This document shows positions 38,522 through 58,584 of a stretch of 64,000 bases of DNA, piece by piece (position 1 is the first letter of the stretch; every line of letters begins with the position of its first letter). The notes beneath the pieces were generated by a model. That model was given only the letters and a program-made list of their open reading frames with translations. It searched no databases and was not told the origin of the DNA. Source of the stretch: Promethearchaeota archaeon (lineage in GTDB: Archaea; Asgardarchaeota; Lokiarchaeia; Sigyniarchaeales; SOKP01); contig JBHLNF010000001.1 in NCBI GenBank assembly GCA_048937405.1, positions 688,785 to 752,784 of the forward strand, read 5' to 3'. Made by a program: the position numbers and the translations under genes.

Positions 38522-39544
38522 TTATATAATTTTTGAACATAAATTTTTTAATAACTCCTCCACTTTCTTTGAAAATCCACTTACAATATCATCAACATCA
38601 ATTATGGAATCGATTAATCCACATGTCTGTCCTACTGGTACGGCCCCATTAACTACATCCCCTTTCGTATAAACAATTTCATAAGCACTCAGCTCTTTTA
38701 AGTATTCATTTATATCATAAGCTAATTCTTGGGATATTTTTTCTTCTTTAGTTATAACTTTCCCATGTTCTAAACAAAACTTATTTTTTAATAATCTAAT
38801 TGGACCAAATCCACCAGTAGTAAGCATTGTATCGTGTGCTGAAGCTGGAGCAATAAGATCTTTATATTTTTGATCGAACTCACACTCATTTGAGGCAATA
38901 AAACGAGTTCCCATCGCAACGGCATCAGCACCCATTGCTAATCCTGCAGCAATTCCTTCAGGTGTAGCAAAACCTCCACACGCAATAAGATATTTATCAG
39001 GGTATTTTTGGGCTACTTGTTGAACTAAGACTAATGTGGTTACACCTTCATAACTTTGATGCCCACCACCTTCAGTTCCCGTTGCTACAATCCCATCACA
39101 ACCAGATTCTATAATTTTATCAACTAACCATAATGCTGGACCAACATGAAAATGGTATAAATCTGGAGCTTTCTCCTTCCATATTTTTCCTACCATACGG
39201 GGACTTCCAGCGCTAGTTAAACCGTAAATTAATTGTTCTCTAAGTTTTGGGTTTTCTTTTCGCCACTGTGGAATTTTTCTTATTAAAATTTTGTGATCTG
39301 TTTGGATTCGAGCAACACGTACATTTATACCAAAAGGCTTATCTGTATGTTCAACAACATAATCTAATTGTTTCTTAAAATCTTTAATCGAATTTTTTCC
39401 TTGTAATGTTGCATGACTTACCACCCCTAATCCACCTGCTTCAGAAACGGCAACGGCTAATTTTGTTGTGTAAAATGGCCCCATTGGAGCACTTATTATT
39501 GGATATTTTATTCCAAAATCCTCAGTTATTCTTGTTTTAATCAA
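38522..39544 (-). CDS. Nitronate monooxygenase / FabK-like flavoprotein
   Basis: PIISAPM, AVSEAGGLG, GTEGGGH, IACGG, MGTRF. Confidence 0.88.
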   Translation of the reverse strand: MIKTRITEDFGIKYPIISAPMGPFYTTKLAVAVSEAGGLGVVSHATLQGKNSIKDFKKQLDYVVEHTDKPFGINVRVARIQTDHKILIRKIPQWRKENPKLREQLIYGLTSAGSPRMVGKIWKEKAPDLYHFHVGPALWLVDKIIESGCDGIVATGTEGGGHQSYEGVTTLVLVQQVAQKYPDKYLIACGGFATPEGIAAGLAMGADAVAMGTRFIASNECEFDQKYKDLIAPASAHDTMLTTGGFGPIRLLKNKFCLEHGKVITKEEKISQELAYDINEYLKELSAYEIVYTKGDVVNGAVPVGQTCGLIDSIIDVDDIVSGFSKKVEELLKNLCSKII

Positions 39545-39754
39545 GTTTTATGACACTAGAAAAATTGAATGATCTATAGTTTATTCTTGCTTTTTAGAAA
39601 TAAAAAAGTTAACGATATCAAACAAATGCCAATCAATTCTTGAAACAAATAACAAAAACTTTTTTAGGTTCTTTTCTATAAATAATATAATAAATTGATG
39701 TAAACATAATAAGTCTGTCTTTGATAAAAAGAACTCAATAAATGTGAATCTGGT

Positions 39755-39919
39755 ATGGATTTTAATAGAAAAAATGTTCTTGACCAATATATTTCTATAT
39801 TGAGTTTCTTCATTTTAAATGAATTTAATAACAATTTTGTTATTAAATCGAATGATGTGAGAGTTGATTGCTTAAAAAACATTAATTCATACTTGCATCA
39901 TTGGCTACATCATGAATAA
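39755..39919 (+). CDS. Putative His leader peptide (54 aa from ATG 39755; 20 aa if GTG 39857 is used), ending LHHWLHHE*
   Basis: Manual translation; four CAT codons at 39896-39901 and 39908-39913; stop 81 nt upstream of the first his gene. Confidence 0.65.
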   Translation: MDFNRKNVLDQYISILSFFILNEFNNNFVIKSNDVRVDCLKNINSYLHHWLHHE

Positions 39920-39963
39920 TTCCGATGAATTAGTATAATATTTTATCATTTATTCATCGGAAT
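39919..39963 (+). promoter_or_regulatory. Stem-loop immediately after the His leader (candidate attenuator)
   Basis: Perfect 12-bp inverted repeat ATTCCGATGAAT (39919-39930) / ATTCATCGGAAT (39952-39963). Confidence 0.65.
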
Positions 39964-40000
39964 AAAATCGAACTAAATTATTTTAGTTTGGGGGATAATT

Positions 40001-40909
40001 ATGATAATATTAAAAATTAATATGAAGGATATGGAAACGGTTGGAGGCTTAAAAGAGTTTATAGATGGAGTATTTACAAAACGAAATTGGGATTTGTTTA
40101 TAACTCTTGTTCTTGAAGCTAATAAGGAAAGCCTTATTACACTGATAAAGGATGATATGCTTAAGATGGTTTCTAATAAGGTTAAAATATGGATAAATTC
40201 AGAAAATAATCAAAAAGAATTAATTAATTTAATAACAGAAAAGGGAATGACGATATACAATTCAGAATCTCATAAAAATGATGAGGTTTTAAGTTTGGAT
40301 TCAATAAAAGATTATTCATCAATAGATAATATTTTGTTTAAGATTTTAGATTTTGATAAAGCTAATGGACTGATACCAACAATTGTACAAGACCTTAATG
40401 ACAATGTACTAATGCTTGCATATTCATCAAAAGAGTCCTTGAAGGTTACAATCAAATATAGAAAATCAACTTATTTTAGCAGATCGAGGAATCGCCTATG
40501 GACTAAAGGTGAAGAATCAGGAAATTATCAAATTGTAAAGAGCATTCTTTACGATTGTGATGCGGATACTTTATTATTTAGGGTAAAACAGAAAGGTTTT
40601 GCTTGTCATAAAGGTACTTATTCTTGTTTTCAGGATCGGAAATTTTCTATAGGATATCTCTATGATTTAATAGTTGATAGAATCAAAAATTATAGTGTAA
40701 ATGAATCCTATAGTAAAAGACTTGCTGAGGATAATGAATTATTAATGTCTAAAATTGAGGAAGAGTGTAACGAAGTGATAAATTACACCGATAGGGATAA
40801 CTTAATTTGGGAAATTGCAGATATTGCATATTTTATTCTTGTATTAATGGCTACCAAAAAAATTAAACCTGAAGAAATAATAAATGAATTAAAGAGGAGG
40901 AACAAATGA
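40001..40909 (+). CDS. hisIE: Bifunctional phosphoribosyl-AMP cyclohydrolase / phosphoribosyl-ATP pyrophosphatase with N-terminal extension
   Basis: GLIPTIVQD, SRSRNRLWTKGEESGN, DCDAD, CHKGTYSCF; KIEEE and EIADI. Confidence 0.92.
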   Translation: MIILKINMKDMETVGGLKEFIDGVFTKRNWDLFITLVLEANKESLITLIKDDMLKMVSNKVKIWINSENNQKELINLITEKGMTIYNSESHKNDEVLSLDSIKDYSSIDNILFKILDFDKANGLIPTIVQDLNDNVLMLAYSSKESLKVTIKYRKSTYFSRSRNRLWTKGEESGNYQIVKSILYDCDADTLLFRVKQKGFACHKGTYSCFQDRKFSIGYLYDLIVDRIKNYSVNESYSKRLAEDNELLMSKIEEECNEVINYTDRDNLIWEIADIAYFILVLMATKKIKPEEIINELKRRNK

Positions 40910-41925
40910 AAGAAGATCAACAAAATTTATTTCCAAAATATAGATCTCGTCAAGTGAGATTAGCACTTCCTTCGAAAGGAAGAATGGAAGTTGAAACTCA
41001 AGAATTTTTAAGAAATTGCGGCTTTAATATACAAAGAAATAATAGACAATATATTGGAACAATAAAAGGACCTATAAATCTTCAATTGGTCTATCAACGA
41101 CAAGTAGATATTGTTAGGGGCATATTGAATGGGTCTTTAGAAATGGGTATTGTCGGTTATGATCTAGTACATGAATATTCATCTTTAGATGAACACGAGT
41201 TAATCATTATGCACAATGCATTAAACTTTGGAAAATGCAGCCTTGAAATAGCAATTCCTGAAGGATGGTCAGAAAAATCAATTGAAGAGATTAAACAGAA
41301 GAAGAAGTCAATTCGAGTTGCGACTAAATTTGCAAAACTCACAGATCAATTTCTCAAATCATTTGATATTAACTATGAGTTAATTCAGGGTAATGGTTCT
41401 CTTGAGGTGTATCCTGAATTAGGGTATAGTGATATTATAGTCGATCTTGTATCAACAGGTCAAACTTTAAAGGATAATCGATTAAAAAGGATTAAAGGTG
41501 GGCAAATAATGACTTCTGAGGCGGTACTTATTGGAAATCGAACAGCTTTAAAAAATGAGACTGTTTTAAAAGTTGCTCGTCAGGTGATTGAGTTTATTGA
41601 AGCTACTTTGAGAGCTCAAAATTTTGTTTCAATTTTTGTAAACATGAGAGGAGAAAGCCCAGAGGATATTGCTAATAATATTTTTTCTAAAGAGGGTCTT
41701 GAAGGGCTTCAAGGGCCTACAATCTCACCCGTCTTTACAAAAAGTAGAGAAAAAATGTATGCCAGTCATGTCATTGTTGAGAAAGAGAAATTACAACAAG
41801 CAATAAGAATTTTAAGAGAAATTGGGGGTAGTGGTGTGGTTGTTGCACCTACACTTTATATTTTTGAAGAAGAACCATTAAGGTATATTAAATTATTAAA
41901 AAATTTGGGGATTTATGATGATTAA
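40906..41925 (+). CDS. hisG: ATP phosphoribosyltransferase, long form
   Basis: LALPSKGR, GIVGYD, VATKF, GSLE, DLVSTGQTLKDN, C-terminal regulatory domain. Confidence 0.95.
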   Translation: MKEDQQNLFPKYRSRQVRLALPSKGRMEVETQEFLRNCGFNIQRNNRQYIGTIKGPINLQLVYQRQVDIVRGILNGSLEMGIVGYDLVHEYSSLDEHELIIMHNALNFGKCSLEIAIPEGWSEKSIEEIKQKKKSIRVATKFAKLTDQFLKSFDINYELIQGNGSLEVYPELGYSDIIVDLVSTGQTLKDNRLKRIKGGQIMTSEAVLIGNRTALKNETVLKVARQVIEFIEATLRAQNFVSIFVNMRGESPEDIANNIFSKEGLEGLQGPTISPVFTKSREKMYASHVIVEKEKLQQAIRILREIGGSGVVVAPTLYIFEEEPLRYIKLLKNLGIYDD

Positions 41926-43249
41926 AACTTATACAGTAGATGAGGCAAGAAAATCAATATTAAAAAGAGAACTTAGTTCTTCAAATGGAAATCTCAGAAG
42001 TGAAGGTGTTACTCCAGAGGAAAGTGTAAAGGCTATTGTAAAAGATGTAAAAGAAAGAAAAGATGCTGCACTTAAAGATTGGACATTAAGGTTTGATAAA
42101 GTAGAAATTGATCAATTTGAATTATTAGATGTTGATTTTGAAAAATATCTGAGCTCTATCAATCCTAAGTTAAGAGAAGCTTTAGAAATAGCATGCGACA
42201 GAATTTATAATTTTCATGAATCTCAACCTATCATCTCTTGGATGAATCACAAACTTGGAGGTCAAATAGGTCAAATAATAAAACCTATTGAAACAATAGG
42301 GATATATATTCCGGGAGGAATAGCTCCTCTGTTTTCCTCAATTTTAATGGCAGCCATACCAGCCATTGTAGCAGGTGTTAAAAATATTATATTCAGTTCT
42401 CCTCCCAATAAGCAAGGTAATTTACCAAACATTATCCTCGCAACTTTTGGGTTAATCAAGAAGTATGATATTAATATGAGAATTTTTAGAATAGGTGGAG
42501 CTCAAGCTATTGCAGCTATGGCATTTGGAACGGAACAAGTTCCCAGAGTAGATAAAATCGTAGGACCTGGAAATATCTATGTAAATTTAGCAAAGAAAGA
42601 AGTTTATGGAATAGTAGGAATTGATGGGATATATGGACCTACTGAAGCATTGGTAATTGCTGATGAAACAGCAAATCCCTCATTAGTTGCTTCAGATCTA
42701 TTAGCACAGGCAGAACATGATATTTTAGCCATTCCAATCTTAGTTACTTCTTCTGAAAATCTAATTTCATCTGTGAAAAAAGAGTTGGAAAGGCAAATTA
42801 TAACTCTGAAAGGAAAAGCTATTATTAAAGAATCTATTCAAAGCAATGGTGGTATTATTTTAACAAATTCAATAGAACAATCGATATTAATTTCAAATGA
42901 ATTTGCACCCGAACATTTATCTCTTATGATTAAAGAGCCTATGAAAGTTTTAGACAAAATAGAAAATGCAGGAGGAATTTTTATTGGAGAAAATTCCTTT
43001 GAAGTTTTAGGTGACTATATTGCAGGACCTAGTCATGTGATGCCGACAAATGGCACAGCTCGTTTTTCATCTGCTTTATCAGTTTATGATTTTATTAAAA
43101 GGATTAGTTATGTTTATTTAAATGAAGAAACATCTTTTAACTTATCTAAACATGCTGAAATAATAGCAAATTCTGAAAATTTAACAGGACATGCAAAAGC
43201 AGCGGCTTTAAGAACAACTCTAAATAAAAATACAAAGGAGGGGAGTTAA
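41915..43249 (+). CDS. hisD: Histidinol dehydrogenase
   Basis: YIPGG, GGAQAIAAMAFGT, GPGN, GPTE, QAEHD, APEHL, GPSHVMPT. Confidence 0.96.
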   Translation: MMIKTYTVDEARKSILKRELSSSNGNLRSEGVTPEESVKAIVKDVKERKDAALKDWTLRFDKVEIDQFELLDVDFEKYLSSINPKLREALEIACDRIYNFHESQPIISWMNHKLGGQIGQIIKPIETIGIYIPGGIAPLFSSILMAAIPAIVAGVKNIIFSSPPNKQGNLPNIILATFGLIKKYDINMRIFRIGGAQAIAAMAFGTEQVPRVDKIVGPGNIYVNLAKKEVYGIVGIDGIYGPTEALVIADETANPSLVASDLLAQAEHDILAIPILVTSSENLISSVKKELERQIITLKGKAIIKESIQSNGGIILTNSIEQSILISNEFAPEHLSLMIKEPMKVLDKIENAGGIFIGENSFEVLGDYIAGPSHVMPTNGTARFSSALSVYDFIKRISYVYLNEETSFNLSKHAEIIANSENLTGHAKAAALRTTLNKNTKEGS

Positions 43250-44383
43250 TTGGATAAAAAAAATTATATTATTAAACCATCGAAAATCATTCGGAAGTTC
43301 TTAGATTCACAGAATTATGATTCACTTTCATATTTAGATAAATCAAGTCAGGAAAATGAGATGATTTTTTTAGATAAAAATGAAAGTCCTTTTGTACCGC
43401 CTTTAGGGGATTTAGTTAATTTAAAGTCATTAAATATCTTAAAAAATTATCCAGATTTGAATGCTAATACATTTTTGGATAAACTATCAAAGGATCTTAA
43501 AATTCCTATTTCATATTTTTTAGCAGGAACAGGCTCTAATGAAATAATAGGTCTGATCATTAAGATCTATGCCACTCCTAAAACTAAAATTTTAAGCATT
43601 AATCCAACCTTTTCAATGTATCAATTCTTTGCTAATATAAATGGTGCAAAATATGAATCGTTTCCCTTAAGATTATTAATAAATAAAGCAACGGGAATTG
43701 CGGAATATGATTTAGATCAATCTGGTTTTATGAAAAGGGCTAAATCATCAAATATTATAATCTTAGCGCGACCAAATAATCCAGATGGGATTATAATCTC
43801 TCTTGATTTTATTAAACAACTTCTAAAATTGAAAAAGTTAGTAATTATTGATGAAGCTTATATTGATTTCAGTGATGGTCCGAGTTTAATAGATTTCATC
43901 AAGTCTTATGATAATTTAATTATTTCTCGGTCATTTAGTAAGTCTTACTCTCTTGCAGGATTAAGATTAGGGTATACAATATCAGATCCTTCTATTAATG
44001 AGATATTAATTCGTATAAAAAGCCCCTTCAATGTGAATAATCTAGCTTTGCAGTATGGTTTATTATTACTAGATAAGAAGGATGAGATTTCAGCAAATAT
44101 TAATAAAATTAAATCAATTCGACAAGAATTTTTTAAGGATCTTCTTAGTTTAAGAGAAAAAAATAAAACTTTTTATATACATCCTAGTCAAACGAATTTT
44201 ATTTTATTAAGATTTGAATCTTCTAAAATATCAGATTCAGTTTATCAATACTTATTAAAAAATAAAATTAAAGTAAGAAATTATGGAGAAGAACTTTCAA
44301 ATTGTTTAAGATTTTCAATAGGTACAAGATTACAAATGAAAAAGGTAATAGAAATATTGAAATCATATTTTGAGGAGAATTAA
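43250..44383 (+). CDS. hisC: Histidinol-phosphate aminotransferase
   Basis: NESP, GSNE, PNNP, DEAY, RSFSKSYSLAGLRLG. Confidence 0.92.
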   Translation: MDKKNYIIKPSKIIRKFLDSQNYDSLSYLDKSSQENEMIFLDKNESPFVPPLGDLVNLKSLNILKNYPDLNANTFLDKLSKDLKIPISYFLAGTGSNEIIGLIIKIYATPKTKILSINPTFSMYQFFANINGAKYESFPLRLLINKATGIAEYDLDQSGFMKRAKSSNIIILARPNNPDGIIISLDFIKQLLKLKKLVIIDEAYIDFSDGPSLIDFIKSYDNLIISRSFSKSYSLAGLRLGYTISDPSINEILIRIKSPFNVNNLALQYGLLLLDKKDEISANINKIKSIRQEFFKDLLSLREKNKTFYIHPSQTNFILLRFESSKISDSVYQYLLKNKIKVRNYGEELSNCLRFSIGTRLQMKKVIEILKSYFEEN

Positions 44384-44384
44384 T

Positions 44385-44990
44385 ATGGAAAGAAAAGCAA
44401 AATTAGAAAGAAAAACAAAAGAGACCAGTATTGAAATCGAAATGAATATTGATGGAAGTGGAGATACTAAGATTAATACCTCCATTGGTTTTTTTGATCA
44501 TCTTCTTACCCAGATTGCTGTTCATGGATCATTTGATATGAAAATTCTTGCAGAGGGTGATCTTAATGTTGATAATCATCATTTAATTGAGGATACTTCT
44601 ATTGTTTTAGGTAAAGTTTTCAACAAGGCTTTGGGAAATAAAATTGGCATTACACGAGTTGGACATTGCTTTTTTCCCATGGATGAGAGCCTTGCGTTTG
44701 TTGCTATAGATATTTCTTCAAGACCATTTTTTAAAAAAGAAATTAATTGGACAAATCCATTTTTAGGATCTAAGGAGGATAATTTAATCCCAGTCGATTT
44801 AATAGAGCATTTTTTATATACATTTTCAATTAATGCCCAAATAACACTTCATGTTAGAGTCCTCTATGGTCAAAATAACCATCATATTGCTGAAGCGATA
44901 TTTAAAGCTCTGGGCAAAGCATTGGATTATAGCTCTAGAATTGATTCAAAGGGGAATCGAAAACTTCCTTCAAGTAAAGGAATATTATAA
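44385..44990 (+). CDS. hisB: Imidazoleglycerol-phosphate dehydratase
   Basis: RKTKET, FFDHLL, DNHHLIED, PMDE, NNHHIAEAIFK, PSSKG; start moved to ATG 44385 after GAGGAG. Confidence 0.95.
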   Translation: MERKAKLERKTKETSIEIEMNIDGSGDTKINTSIGFFDHLLTQIAVHGSFDMKILAEGDLNVDNHHLIEDTSIVLGKVFNKALGNKIGITRVGHCFFPMDESLAFVAIDISSRPFFKKEINWTNPFLGSKEDNLIPVDLIEHFLYTFSINAQITLHVRVLYGQNNHHIAEAIFKALGKALDYSSRIDSKGNRKLPSSKGIL

Positions 44991-45003
44991 GTTGGTTTTT
45001 AAC

Positions 45004-45597
45004 ATGATTACTATAATAGATTATGGAAGTGGCAATCTTCGGTCGATTCAAAAAAGTGTCCAAAGATTTTATCCGAAGGTAATTATTTCAAGAGATCTTG
45101 CTTTAATAGAGAAATCTAAAGGTTTAATTCTTCCTGGAGTAGGCGCATTTGGTGATGCTGTTAAAGAACTCGAACAATATGGGTTATTCTACCCATTAAA
45201 AGATATTATTGAAACAGTTCCAACAATGGGAATTTGCTTAGGCATGCAGCTATTATTTTCAAATTCTGAAGAATCTCCAGATGTTAACGGATTAGATATC
45301 ATCCCCGGAAAGGTGACTAAATTAGACTCATATCAATCAATCAGAATCCCTCATACTGGATGGAATAGACTAATTCCATCATCGAAACCATATTTTTATG
45401 GCTATGTATACTTTAATCATTCATATTATTGTGACCCTGATGATAAAAATTATATAATCTCTTATGTAAATCATGGGATTTCAATTCCAGTTATAATCTT
45501 AAAGGATCACATAATTGCTGCTCAATTTCATCCTGAGAAAAGTCAAAATGCTGGTGATAGAATTATCAATTATTTCATTTCCTTAATAAAGAGGTGA
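45004..45597 (+). CDS. hisH: IGP synthase glutamine amidotransferase subunit
   Basis: IIDYGSGN, LPGVG, GICLGMQ, PHTGWN, HSY, QFHPEKS; start moved to ATG 45004. Confidence 0.95.
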   Translation: MITIIDYGSGNLRSIQKSVQRFYPKVIISRDLALIEKSKGLILPGVGAFGDAVKELEQYGLFYPLKDIIETVPTMGICLGMQLLFSNSEESPDVNGLDIIPGKVTKLDSYQSIRIPHTGWNRLIPSSKPYFYGYVYFNHSYYCDPDDKNYIISYVNHGISIPVIILKDHIIAAQFHPEKSQNAGDRIINYFISLIKR

Positions 45598-45604
45598 CTA
45601 TATT

Positions 45605-47107
45605 ATGAAAAAAATAATACCAGCTATGGATCTTTTAGATGGTAACGTGGTTAGGTTATATAAAGGGGATTTTGATAGAATTGATAATTATTATAAAAGA
45701 CCTGTTGAACTTCTTAAGCAATTTTTTAATCAAGGGATTGAGCAAATACACGTTATAAATCTAAATGGAGCAAAATCAGGTGAATTTGAGAATGGACCTA
45801 ATTATGATGTTATTCGATCTTTAATTCAAGAAAGTAAAAAATGGGGTTCTAAAATTCAATTAGGAGGGGGTATTAGAACAGAAAGAACTATTAGAGAATT
45901 ACTTGATCTAGGACTTTATAAGGTTATTATAGGTACTATTACTATTGAAAATCCAACTCTTTTTAGACATTTAATGAAAAAATACAAAGATGATATAATA
46001 GTTGCACTGGATGTTCTTAATGGTAATTTGAGAATAAAGGGTTGGCTCGAAGATTCTAATATCAATTTAGAATCTCATTTTAAAACTTTGGAAGAACAAG
46101 GAGTTTCAAACTTTATAATAACTGATGTTTCACGAGACGGAACGTTAGGAGGTCCTAATTTTCAGATCTACAAGAAAATCTCAAATCTCAGATATCCTGA
46201 CACTAGAATAATCGCTTCTGGAGGTATAAGTAATTTAAATGATATTAACCAAGTTCTAAATTATGCAGATGGTGTAATTATCGGAAAAGCTTATTATAGC
46301 AATAAAATAAGCAATAAAAATCTAAGAGATTTAACAAAGAAGTATGACCCCACTAATTTAGCAAAAAGAATAGTGCCATGCCTTGATATTAAAGATGGAA
46401 GAGTAGTAAAGGGTGTTCAATATATCAACTTACGAGATAGTGGAGATCCTGTAGAACTATCTAGATTCTATAATACAGAAGGCGCGGATGAATTAGTATT
46501 CCTAGACATTTCTGCAACTTTAGAAAAACGATCAATATTGTTTCAAACTTTAAGAAAAGTTTCTGAACAGGTATATATTCCTTTTACAGTAGGAGGTGGT
46601 ATTAGAAATTTGAATGATATAACAAATATCATTAATGCAGGGGCAGAAAAAGTAAGTATTAACACTGCTGCTGTAGATAATCCCAAAGTTATCACTGAAG
46701 GTGCTCAAAAGTTTGGAAGTCAGTCTATTGTGTGTGCAATTGATGTAAAAAAAAAAGGAGATGCTTGGGAAGTATATATAAAGGCGGGTACTGAATCAAC
46801 AGGATTAGATGCAATAGAATGGGCAAAAGAAGTTGTTGAAAGGGGAGCAGGGGAACTACTTGTTACTAGTATGGATCGAGATGGTACTCAAATAGGCTAC
46901 GACTTTAAATTAATTCAAAGTCTCACTAATGTGATATCTGTACCATTAATTGCTTCAGGTGGAGCAGGTAATTATGAACATTTTTATCAAGCTATTAAAG
47001 CTGGGGCAGAGGCGGTCTTAGCAGCATCTTTATTCCATACAAAGACAATAAAAATTAAGGATTTAAAATCTTATCTTCATAAGAGAGATATAAAAGTTAG
47101 ATTTTAG
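45605..47107 (+). CDS. hisA-hisF: HisA-HisF fusion (ProFAR isomerase + IGP synthase cyclase)
   Basis: N-half [30 protein letters not shown]; C-half [36 protein letters not shown], in one uninterrupted frame. Confidence 0.9.
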
Positions 47108-58509: not shown

Positions 58510-58584
58510 TTAAAGACGGCGACGTGCCGAGTATAGATTGCGTAGTGCTTTTTGAAATTGTTTTCCTACAATTTCGTTATTCAT
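58510..58584 (-). CDS. Putative Arg leader peptide MNNEIVGKQFQKALRNLYSARRRL*
   Basis: Manual translation; terminal CGT CGC CGT run plus one CGC; co-oriented with argJ and ending 146 nt upstream of it. Confidence 0.75.
   Translation of the reverse strand: MNNEIVGKQFQKALRNLYSARRRL

Follow-up and report, generated by a model that had tools for sequence, protein, structure and literature searches.

A conserved leader ORF with a His-codon tail lies within a structured RNA upstream of a his operon in Asgard archaea and is a candidate sensor of charged tRNA-His

The window (the whole 64,000-nt stretch of DNA that was analysed) belongs to a genome of 4.47 Mb with 28.9% G+C, and it carries a his operon preceded by a short leader ORF (uORF). 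The uORF started with ATG, comprised 54 codons and encoded a C-terminus of HHWLHHE. All four of its His codons were CAT and fell inside the last seven codons, and a gap of 81 nt separated its stop codon from the hisIE ATG at 40001. These properties had been claimed in the original prediction, made from the sequence alone, and they held in full. The features of the locus are listed below.

39743-39748, plus strand: Shine-Dalgarno (SD) sequence of the uORF, TGTGAA, 6 nt before the ATG; its position is conserved in the alignment and in relative G142
39755-39919, plus strand: uORF, with the stop codon TAA at 39917-39919
39896-39901 and 39908-39913, plus strand: putative regulatory His codons, CAT CAT, separated by TGG CTA from a second CAT CAT
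39990-39996, plus strand: SD sequence of hisIE, a G-run conserved in the alignments
40001-47107, plus strand: his operon (typed with Pfam and NCBIfam), in the order hisIE (40001-40909), hisG, hisD, an aminotransferase gene, an IGPD gene (hisB), an ORF (44851-45597) and a gene for a double His_biosynth protein (hisA/F)

HisIE combined the PRA-CH and PRA-PH domains and matched the NCBIfam HisIE model above its cut-off. HisG was present with its C-terminal domain, and the aminotransferase was assigned to class I/II by Pfam and NCBIfam. As the downstream genes were typed as his genes, the uORF heads a his operon. The N-terminal extension of HisIE, about 110 aa long (window 40001-40330), was not assigned to any Pfam family (best E 0.055). 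Because this extension was full-length in relatives, position 40001 is the real start of hisIE. The upstream neighbour was a divergent gene of the nitronate-monooxygenase family, and tRNA genes with introns were present on the 1-Mb contig. The operon ended with a 500-aa protein (window 45605-47107) that contained two His_biosynth domains and is an apparent HisA-HisF fusion.

A first alternative is that the uORF arose by chance in an AT-rich spacer, with its small size as the sole support. His made up 1.6% of the proteome, and CAT accounted for 84% of the His codons. Among the 254,288 stop-to-stop frames in this genome with 10 or more codons, 56 (2.2e-4) carried at least four His residues in the last eight codons. 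Ten other His-tailed frames were inspected; none of them (0/10) preceded a his gene, and 7/10 lay inside genes of the opposite strand. The chance reading is refuted by conservation, and the rarity of His tails, the open frame and the covariation of the RNA helices, both described below, also speak against it. We therefore regard it as all but excluded.

BLAST, followed by a covariance model (R1) built from 11 copies, detected the uORF leader in 13 of the 134 family genomes, with one copy in each; these 13 belonged to two genera. A pattern scan filtered with R1 gave 16 further copies, with 14 distinct peptides, on metagenome contigs. The 302-aa HisIE was matched over its full length in exactly these 13 leader-bearing genomes, and the leader preceded this type of his operon in every sampled relative that had it (13/13). 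In all copies the ORF was 36-54 codons long and its tail contained 4-6 CAT codons; the His codons fell within the last 6-11 codons, and 0-2 codons separated the last of them from the stop. The tails varied in wording (HHWLHH, HHLHH, HLHHHQHH, HHHLHY, HHWHYH, HHCQHH), so the feature that was kept is His richness adjoining the stop codon and not a fixed word. The spacing from the stop codon to the hisIE ATG stayed between 81 and 87 nt. A search for His-codon uORFs before related his operons had been proposed as a check of the original prediction; it was run and was positive in 13 genomes and 16 contigs. A lack of conservation of the His codons was one part of a refuting condition set for that prediction, and no copy showed it. 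As the relatives are kin, the copy counts overstate the number of independent observations.

Other relatives encoded either a HisIE fusion, about 400 aa long and different in its N-terminal part, or a stand-alone HisI, the latter adjoining an Lrp/AsnC-like gene. No His-tailed uORF was present at the two fusion-type and nine stand-alone HisI loci that were inspected, and R1 matched none of the genomes with the fusion of about 400 aa or the stand-alone HisI. R1 was also run against six other families of the class (24 genomes) and gave no match. The leader and its HisIE were carried by just 6/53 and 7/42 genomes of the two genera. They were sometimes more alike between the genera than within one genus, as in the pairs L023 (G018, genus g1) with L021 (G134, genus g22) and L024 (G001, g1) with L025 (G138, g22). 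It is possible that the operon and its leader are transferred laterally or lost often.

The alignment behaved as a series of codons. Frame 0 had no internal stop in 11/11 copies checked, and each of the other five frames had 1-13 stops. The gap runs inside the uORF were 12, 6, 9 and 42 nt, every one a multiple of three, whereas the gaps just 5' of the start were not multiples of three. The start codon was aligned among the copies and was ATG in most and TTG in three. Among the copies, an SD-like word (GGTGA, AGTGA or TGTGA) was placed 6-9 nt before the start; these words were among those enriched before genes in this genome, in which the SD consensus is GGAGGTGA-like. The uORF is thus a short open ORF with translation signals in the 5' leader of the operon; its translation itself was not measured. 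The three TTG starts and a length unusual for a leader peptide are points against the leader-peptide reading.

The leader also contained five RNA helices, named P1, P2, PH, P3 and P4, which were supported by covariation (RNAalifold and our own counts). This conserved RNA encloses the ORF and had been missed in the original prediction.

39731-39741 with 39797-39807, plus strand: helix P1; 93% of alignment cells paired, 2 pairs with double changes
39823-39832 with 39839-39848, plus strand: helix P2, a hairpin within the uORF; 95% paired, 3 pairs with double changes
39851-39861 with 39892-39902, plus strand: helix PH; 86-87% paired, 3-4 pairs with double changes
39917-39930 with 39952-39965, plus strand: helix P3, 14 bp; 95% paired, 3-4 pairs with double changes
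39970-39977 with 39982-39989, plus strand: helix P4, 8 bp; 100% paired in 22 distinct sequences

The loop of P1 held the SD and start codon of the uORF, and its 3' arm corresponded to uORF codons 15-18. The middle of the peptide was conserved because P2 sits there. In PH a GATGATG-type segment paired with the first two His codons, which form part of the 3' arm. The 5' arm of P3 began at the uORF stop codon, and its stem was rewritten in two relatives, G142 and G109. P4 showed an A-U to G-C double change and ended directly at the hisIE SD. Over 11 sequences, 94% of the cells paired, with 12 double-change pairs; none of 500 shuffled alignments (0/500) matched this result, and slid controls reached only 27-44%. 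For PH, P3 and P4 in 22 distinct sequences, the pairing was 93.6%, compared with 29-46% in slid controls. The z-score was −5.4 for P3 and P4 together and −4.6 for the whole leader, and the helices, PH included, were also seen in minimum-free-energy folds of single sequences.

The most divergent copy, that of G142, was detected by R1 and had been left out of the building of R1. It had neither P1 nor P2 and no similarity in the body of the peptide; it kept the SD, the start, an open frame of 48 codons, the His tail, P3 with its rewritten stem, P4 and the hisIE SD. This pattern fits a leader peptide and not a functional small protein. In G109 the peptide body was barely conserved. From these comparisons we infer that the His-codon cluster directly before the stop is likely to be the only coding feature of the uORF under selection.

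It could be argued that the uORF encodes a functional small His-rich protein, e.g., a metal-binding peptide, that is merely co-transcribed with the his operon. The products, at 36-54 aa, are longer than classical leader peptides and have a His-rich C-terminus, which supports this explanation. Against it, the peptide matched no Pfam family, its body was lost in G142 and nearly so in G109, the conserved stretches coincided with RNA helices, and the link to one type of his operon was strict. We consider this explanation very unlikely.

A stronger objection is that regulation rests on the RNA itself: the leader would be a cis-regulatory structure binding a protein, a tRNA or a metabolite in the manner of a riboswitch or T-box, with the ORF as a by-product of the helices. 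Three results favour this explanation: the five covarying helices with the conserved middle of the peptide coinciding with P2, the pairing of CAT codons with the GATGATG segment in PH, and the failure to model a switch driven by ribosome position (see below). As CAU is the complement of AUG and GAUG, some of the CAT conservation could serve the pairing in PH and not decoding. It is also a point against the sensor reading that P1, P2 and PH are more elaborate than a simple sensor requires. However, the frame was open in all copies while the other frames were rich in stops, and all indels were in frame. The SD and start codon were conserved, and G142 retained the ORF and the His tail in the absence of P1 and P2. 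The copies of the g22 type held more CAT codons than PH can pair, and ORFs with cognate codons were found before other operons of the genome. A cmscan search of positions 39500-40100 against Rfam, with E values up to 10, gave only four chance-level matches to unrelated families, and neither His_leader (RF00514) nor the T-box riboswitch (RF00230) was matched at this threshold. On balance a purely RNA-based element is unlikely.

Covariation in P1 argues that the transcription start site lies upstream of 39731. Two promoter candidates were observed in this region.

39657-39667, plus strand: motif with the core TTTTTTAG, found in 11/12 copies inspected; the remaining copy has TTTTTTAA
39677-39684, plus strand: TATA-like word TATAAATA, an alternative TATA box, partly conserved; no transcription start site data exist

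The TTTTTTAG motif was located 64-95 nt 5' of the uORF start, was invariant in two alignments and was present in the divergent copies; it is possibly a TATA box or a transcription-factor site. The relatives showed a CATAAA/TATAAA-type word 8-12 nt after the TTTTTTAG-core word, and the TATA-like words of this genome peaked 25-100 nt upstream of gene starts. Since the TTTTTTAG word does not serve as a promoter word across the genome, a transcription factor may add a further level of regulation. CTTTTTTAG was considered as a general promoter word and was rejected, having no positional enrichment in the genome.

The comparisons establish a conserved ORF with a His tail, the helices, and their association with the operon. 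We prefer, and consider likely, the reading that a ribosome on the uORF gauges charged tRNA-His on behalf of the hisIE-G-D-C-B-(H)-AF operon; translation, stalling and tRNA sensing are inferred, and no expression data are available. Under this reading the transcript would start upstream of P1, and a ribosome would load at the SD in the P1 loop and unwind P1, P2 and PH as it advances. When charged His-tRNA is scarce, the ribosome would dwell on the two His-His pairs. The His codons form the 3' arm of PH and lie 5-10 nt before P3, and therefore the position of the ribosome would decide whether PH and P3 are open or closed. A ribosome footprint extends about 13 nt 3' of the A site. From this geometry, a ribosome at the first His pair would open PH and leave P3 closed, and P3 would melt, mostly or completely, only once the ribosome has reached the last His codon or the stop. 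Both PH and P3 are less than one ribosome footprint away from the His codons and the stop. The conformational difference would then be passed on to hisIE expression, with translation initiation, factor-dependent termination and mRNA stability as possible levels of output; both the direction and the level of control are inferred.

The sensing half of this scheme is well supported, given that the His codons are placed so that a paused ribosome must clash with PH and P3. The output step was not resolved by modelling. No terminator-like site (0) was detected in 39540-40100 when an intrinsic terminator was searched for. A conserved T-run of the kind expected for an archaeal terminator was also sought in the loops of P3 and P4 and in the spacer; none was conserved, and P4 was followed by only 3-4 U. 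In ribosome-mask folding of 11 copies, which relies on thermodynamic models only, the exposure of the hisIE SD and AUG showed no consistent change. The mean unpaired probability of the hisIE SD was about 0.56 in the free leader; placing a ribosome on the last His codon or the stop gave 0.48-0.54. This SD lies 3' of P4 and was mostly unpaired in the models, so sequestration of the erm/cat type was not observed. A systematic search for competing helices found only two conserved ones, each of 5 bp, between the His codons and the 5' arm of P3 and between the 3' arms of P3 and P4; these stem from the GAUGA/UCAUY pattern that recurs in PH and P3. The original prediction that charged tRNA-His is sensed through the uORF is thus supported by comparative evidence, with sensing inferred and not measured, while its analogy with attenuation did not hold to the same extent: transcription attenuation is not shown, as there is no terminator and no clear antiterminator. 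Neither tRNA-His nor the 16S 3' end was located in the assembly, in which ARAGORN found only 14 tRNA genes, most of them with introns. Long-range pairing between the last His codons and the hisIE start was also considered; it appeared in the minimum-free-energy folds of only 4-5 copies and was rejected as not conserved.

These results leave room for another explanation, that the uORF is translated without sensing His and acts constitutively, e.g., by keeping the leader unfolded or by increasing hisIE translation through coupling or re-initiation across the compact fold of P3 and P4. In its favour, once P3 and P4 are folded, no more than about 10 unpaired nt separate the uORF stop from the hisIE SD, and the spacing from stop to ATG is held within the narrow range given above. 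For bacteria it has been proposed that re-initiation after a leader gene increases translation of the gene that follows (PMC4833913), which also favours this explanation. However, it accounts neither for the His codons beside the stop in all copies, where the remainder of the peptide varies, nor for the presence before leu, trp, ile and arg genes of leaders enriched in the cognate amino acid (described next). We judge it unlikely and retain the sensor reading.

The sister leaders came from an unbiased scan of this genome, in which 6970 small ORFs upstream of crude gene calls were searched for tails enriched in one amino acid. The top ranks included the following ORFs, along with that before HisIE (His 4/12).

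G000:C7:562232-562333, minus strand: Leu 10/12, before 2-isopropylmalate synthase (leuA)
C7:23743-23793, minus strand: Trp 4/12, before a TrpB-like enzyme (trpB2)
C20:77277-77348, plus strand: Ile 9/12, before citramalate synthase (cimA)
C11:2400-2501, minus strand: Trp 3/12, before TrpD (trpD)

An Arg leader of 24 codons was located in the window between argH and argJBDCG, on the minus strand from 58584 to 58510. Its tail consisted of three CGN Arg codons plus Leu, and it was kept in relative G075 (L073) with four CGN codons; CGT and CGC represented 12% and 3%, respectively, of the Arg codons in this genome. The original prediction had cited a matching Arg leader at 58510-58584, and this leader exists, but on the minus strand. 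Each sister leader had a stable hairpin at or near its stop codon, and they shared neither sequence nor a common downstream element. The hairpin of the Arg leader was followed by long T-runs, which the His leader lacks, and the His leader was the longest and most structured among the leaders of this genome. In the same genome we also observed a 1123-aa protein (G000:C13:247457-250828, minus strand, L057) that joins an extracellular solute-binding domain (SBP_bac_5) to a C-terminal TIR domain.

A bolder reading is that Asgard archaea of this family use a regulon-wide, ribosome-read sensing of amino acids, with His, Leu, Trp, Ile and Arg leaders, and an output without an intrinsic terminator; where the ribosome stands at the uORF end would set the fold of a hairpin beginning in the stop codon, and this fold would govern either factor-dependent (aCPSF1/FttA-like) termination or (re-)initiation at the next cistron. 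On present evidence we lean slightly against it. If true, these archaea would have a mechanism intermediate between the attenuation of bacteria and the uORF control of eukaryotes.

The candidate sensor sits in Asgard archaea, which are the closest known prokaryotic relatives of eukaryotes. Leader-peptide sensing is a textbook bacterial mechanism that needs coupled transcription and translation together with hairpin terminators. In the full-text literature searched, no report of amino-acid sensing by leader peptides in archaea or Asgard archaea was found; this is an absence in that literature and not proof, and it is consistent with the original statement that such leaders are little documented in archaea. 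If confirmed, the His leader would show ribosomes serving as metabolite gauges in archaea, would offer a compact and well-delimited RNA of about 280 nt in which to study archaeal transcription-translation coupling or uORF control, and would improve the annotation of apparently empty spacers before Asgard biosynthetic operons.

Compared with hisL, the his attenuator of enterobacteria, the Asgard leader is similar in having a short ORF with His codons upstream of the his operon, successive leader hairpins of which one involves the His codons, and a ribosome that presumably reports on the charging of His-tRNA. It differs in its ORF, which has 36-54 codons and 4-6 His residues in two end clusters, whereas hisL has 16 codons and 7 consecutive His. 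It also lacks a hairpin-plus-U terminator, a clear antiterminator and a match to the Rfam His_leader family RF00514. The RNA polymerase of its Asgard host is not known to use bacterial intrinsic terminators.

Other known leaders act without such terminators. In ermC and cat, a paused ribosome in the leader ORF remodels the downstream RNA and controls the next cistron with no need for termination, which resembles the scheme proposed here. In mycobacteria, leaderless Cys-rich sORFs place cognate Cys codons before Cys genes (bioRxiv 10.1101/834739). In both of these systems the paused ribosome frees a sequestered SD, whereas the hisIE SD lies outside P4. In tnaC, and in mgtL with Rho, a ribosome at or near the leader stop controls the access of a termination factor without an intrinsic terminator; the Asgard leader is similar in that its ORF ends next to the regulatory RNA. 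Rho is not known to occur in archaea, and a factor of the aCPSF1/FttA type would need to take that role. By analogy, the element would be closest in spirit to these terminator-independent leaders, that is, to erm/cat, the mycobacterial Cys leaders and the Rho-dependent tnaC and mgtL.
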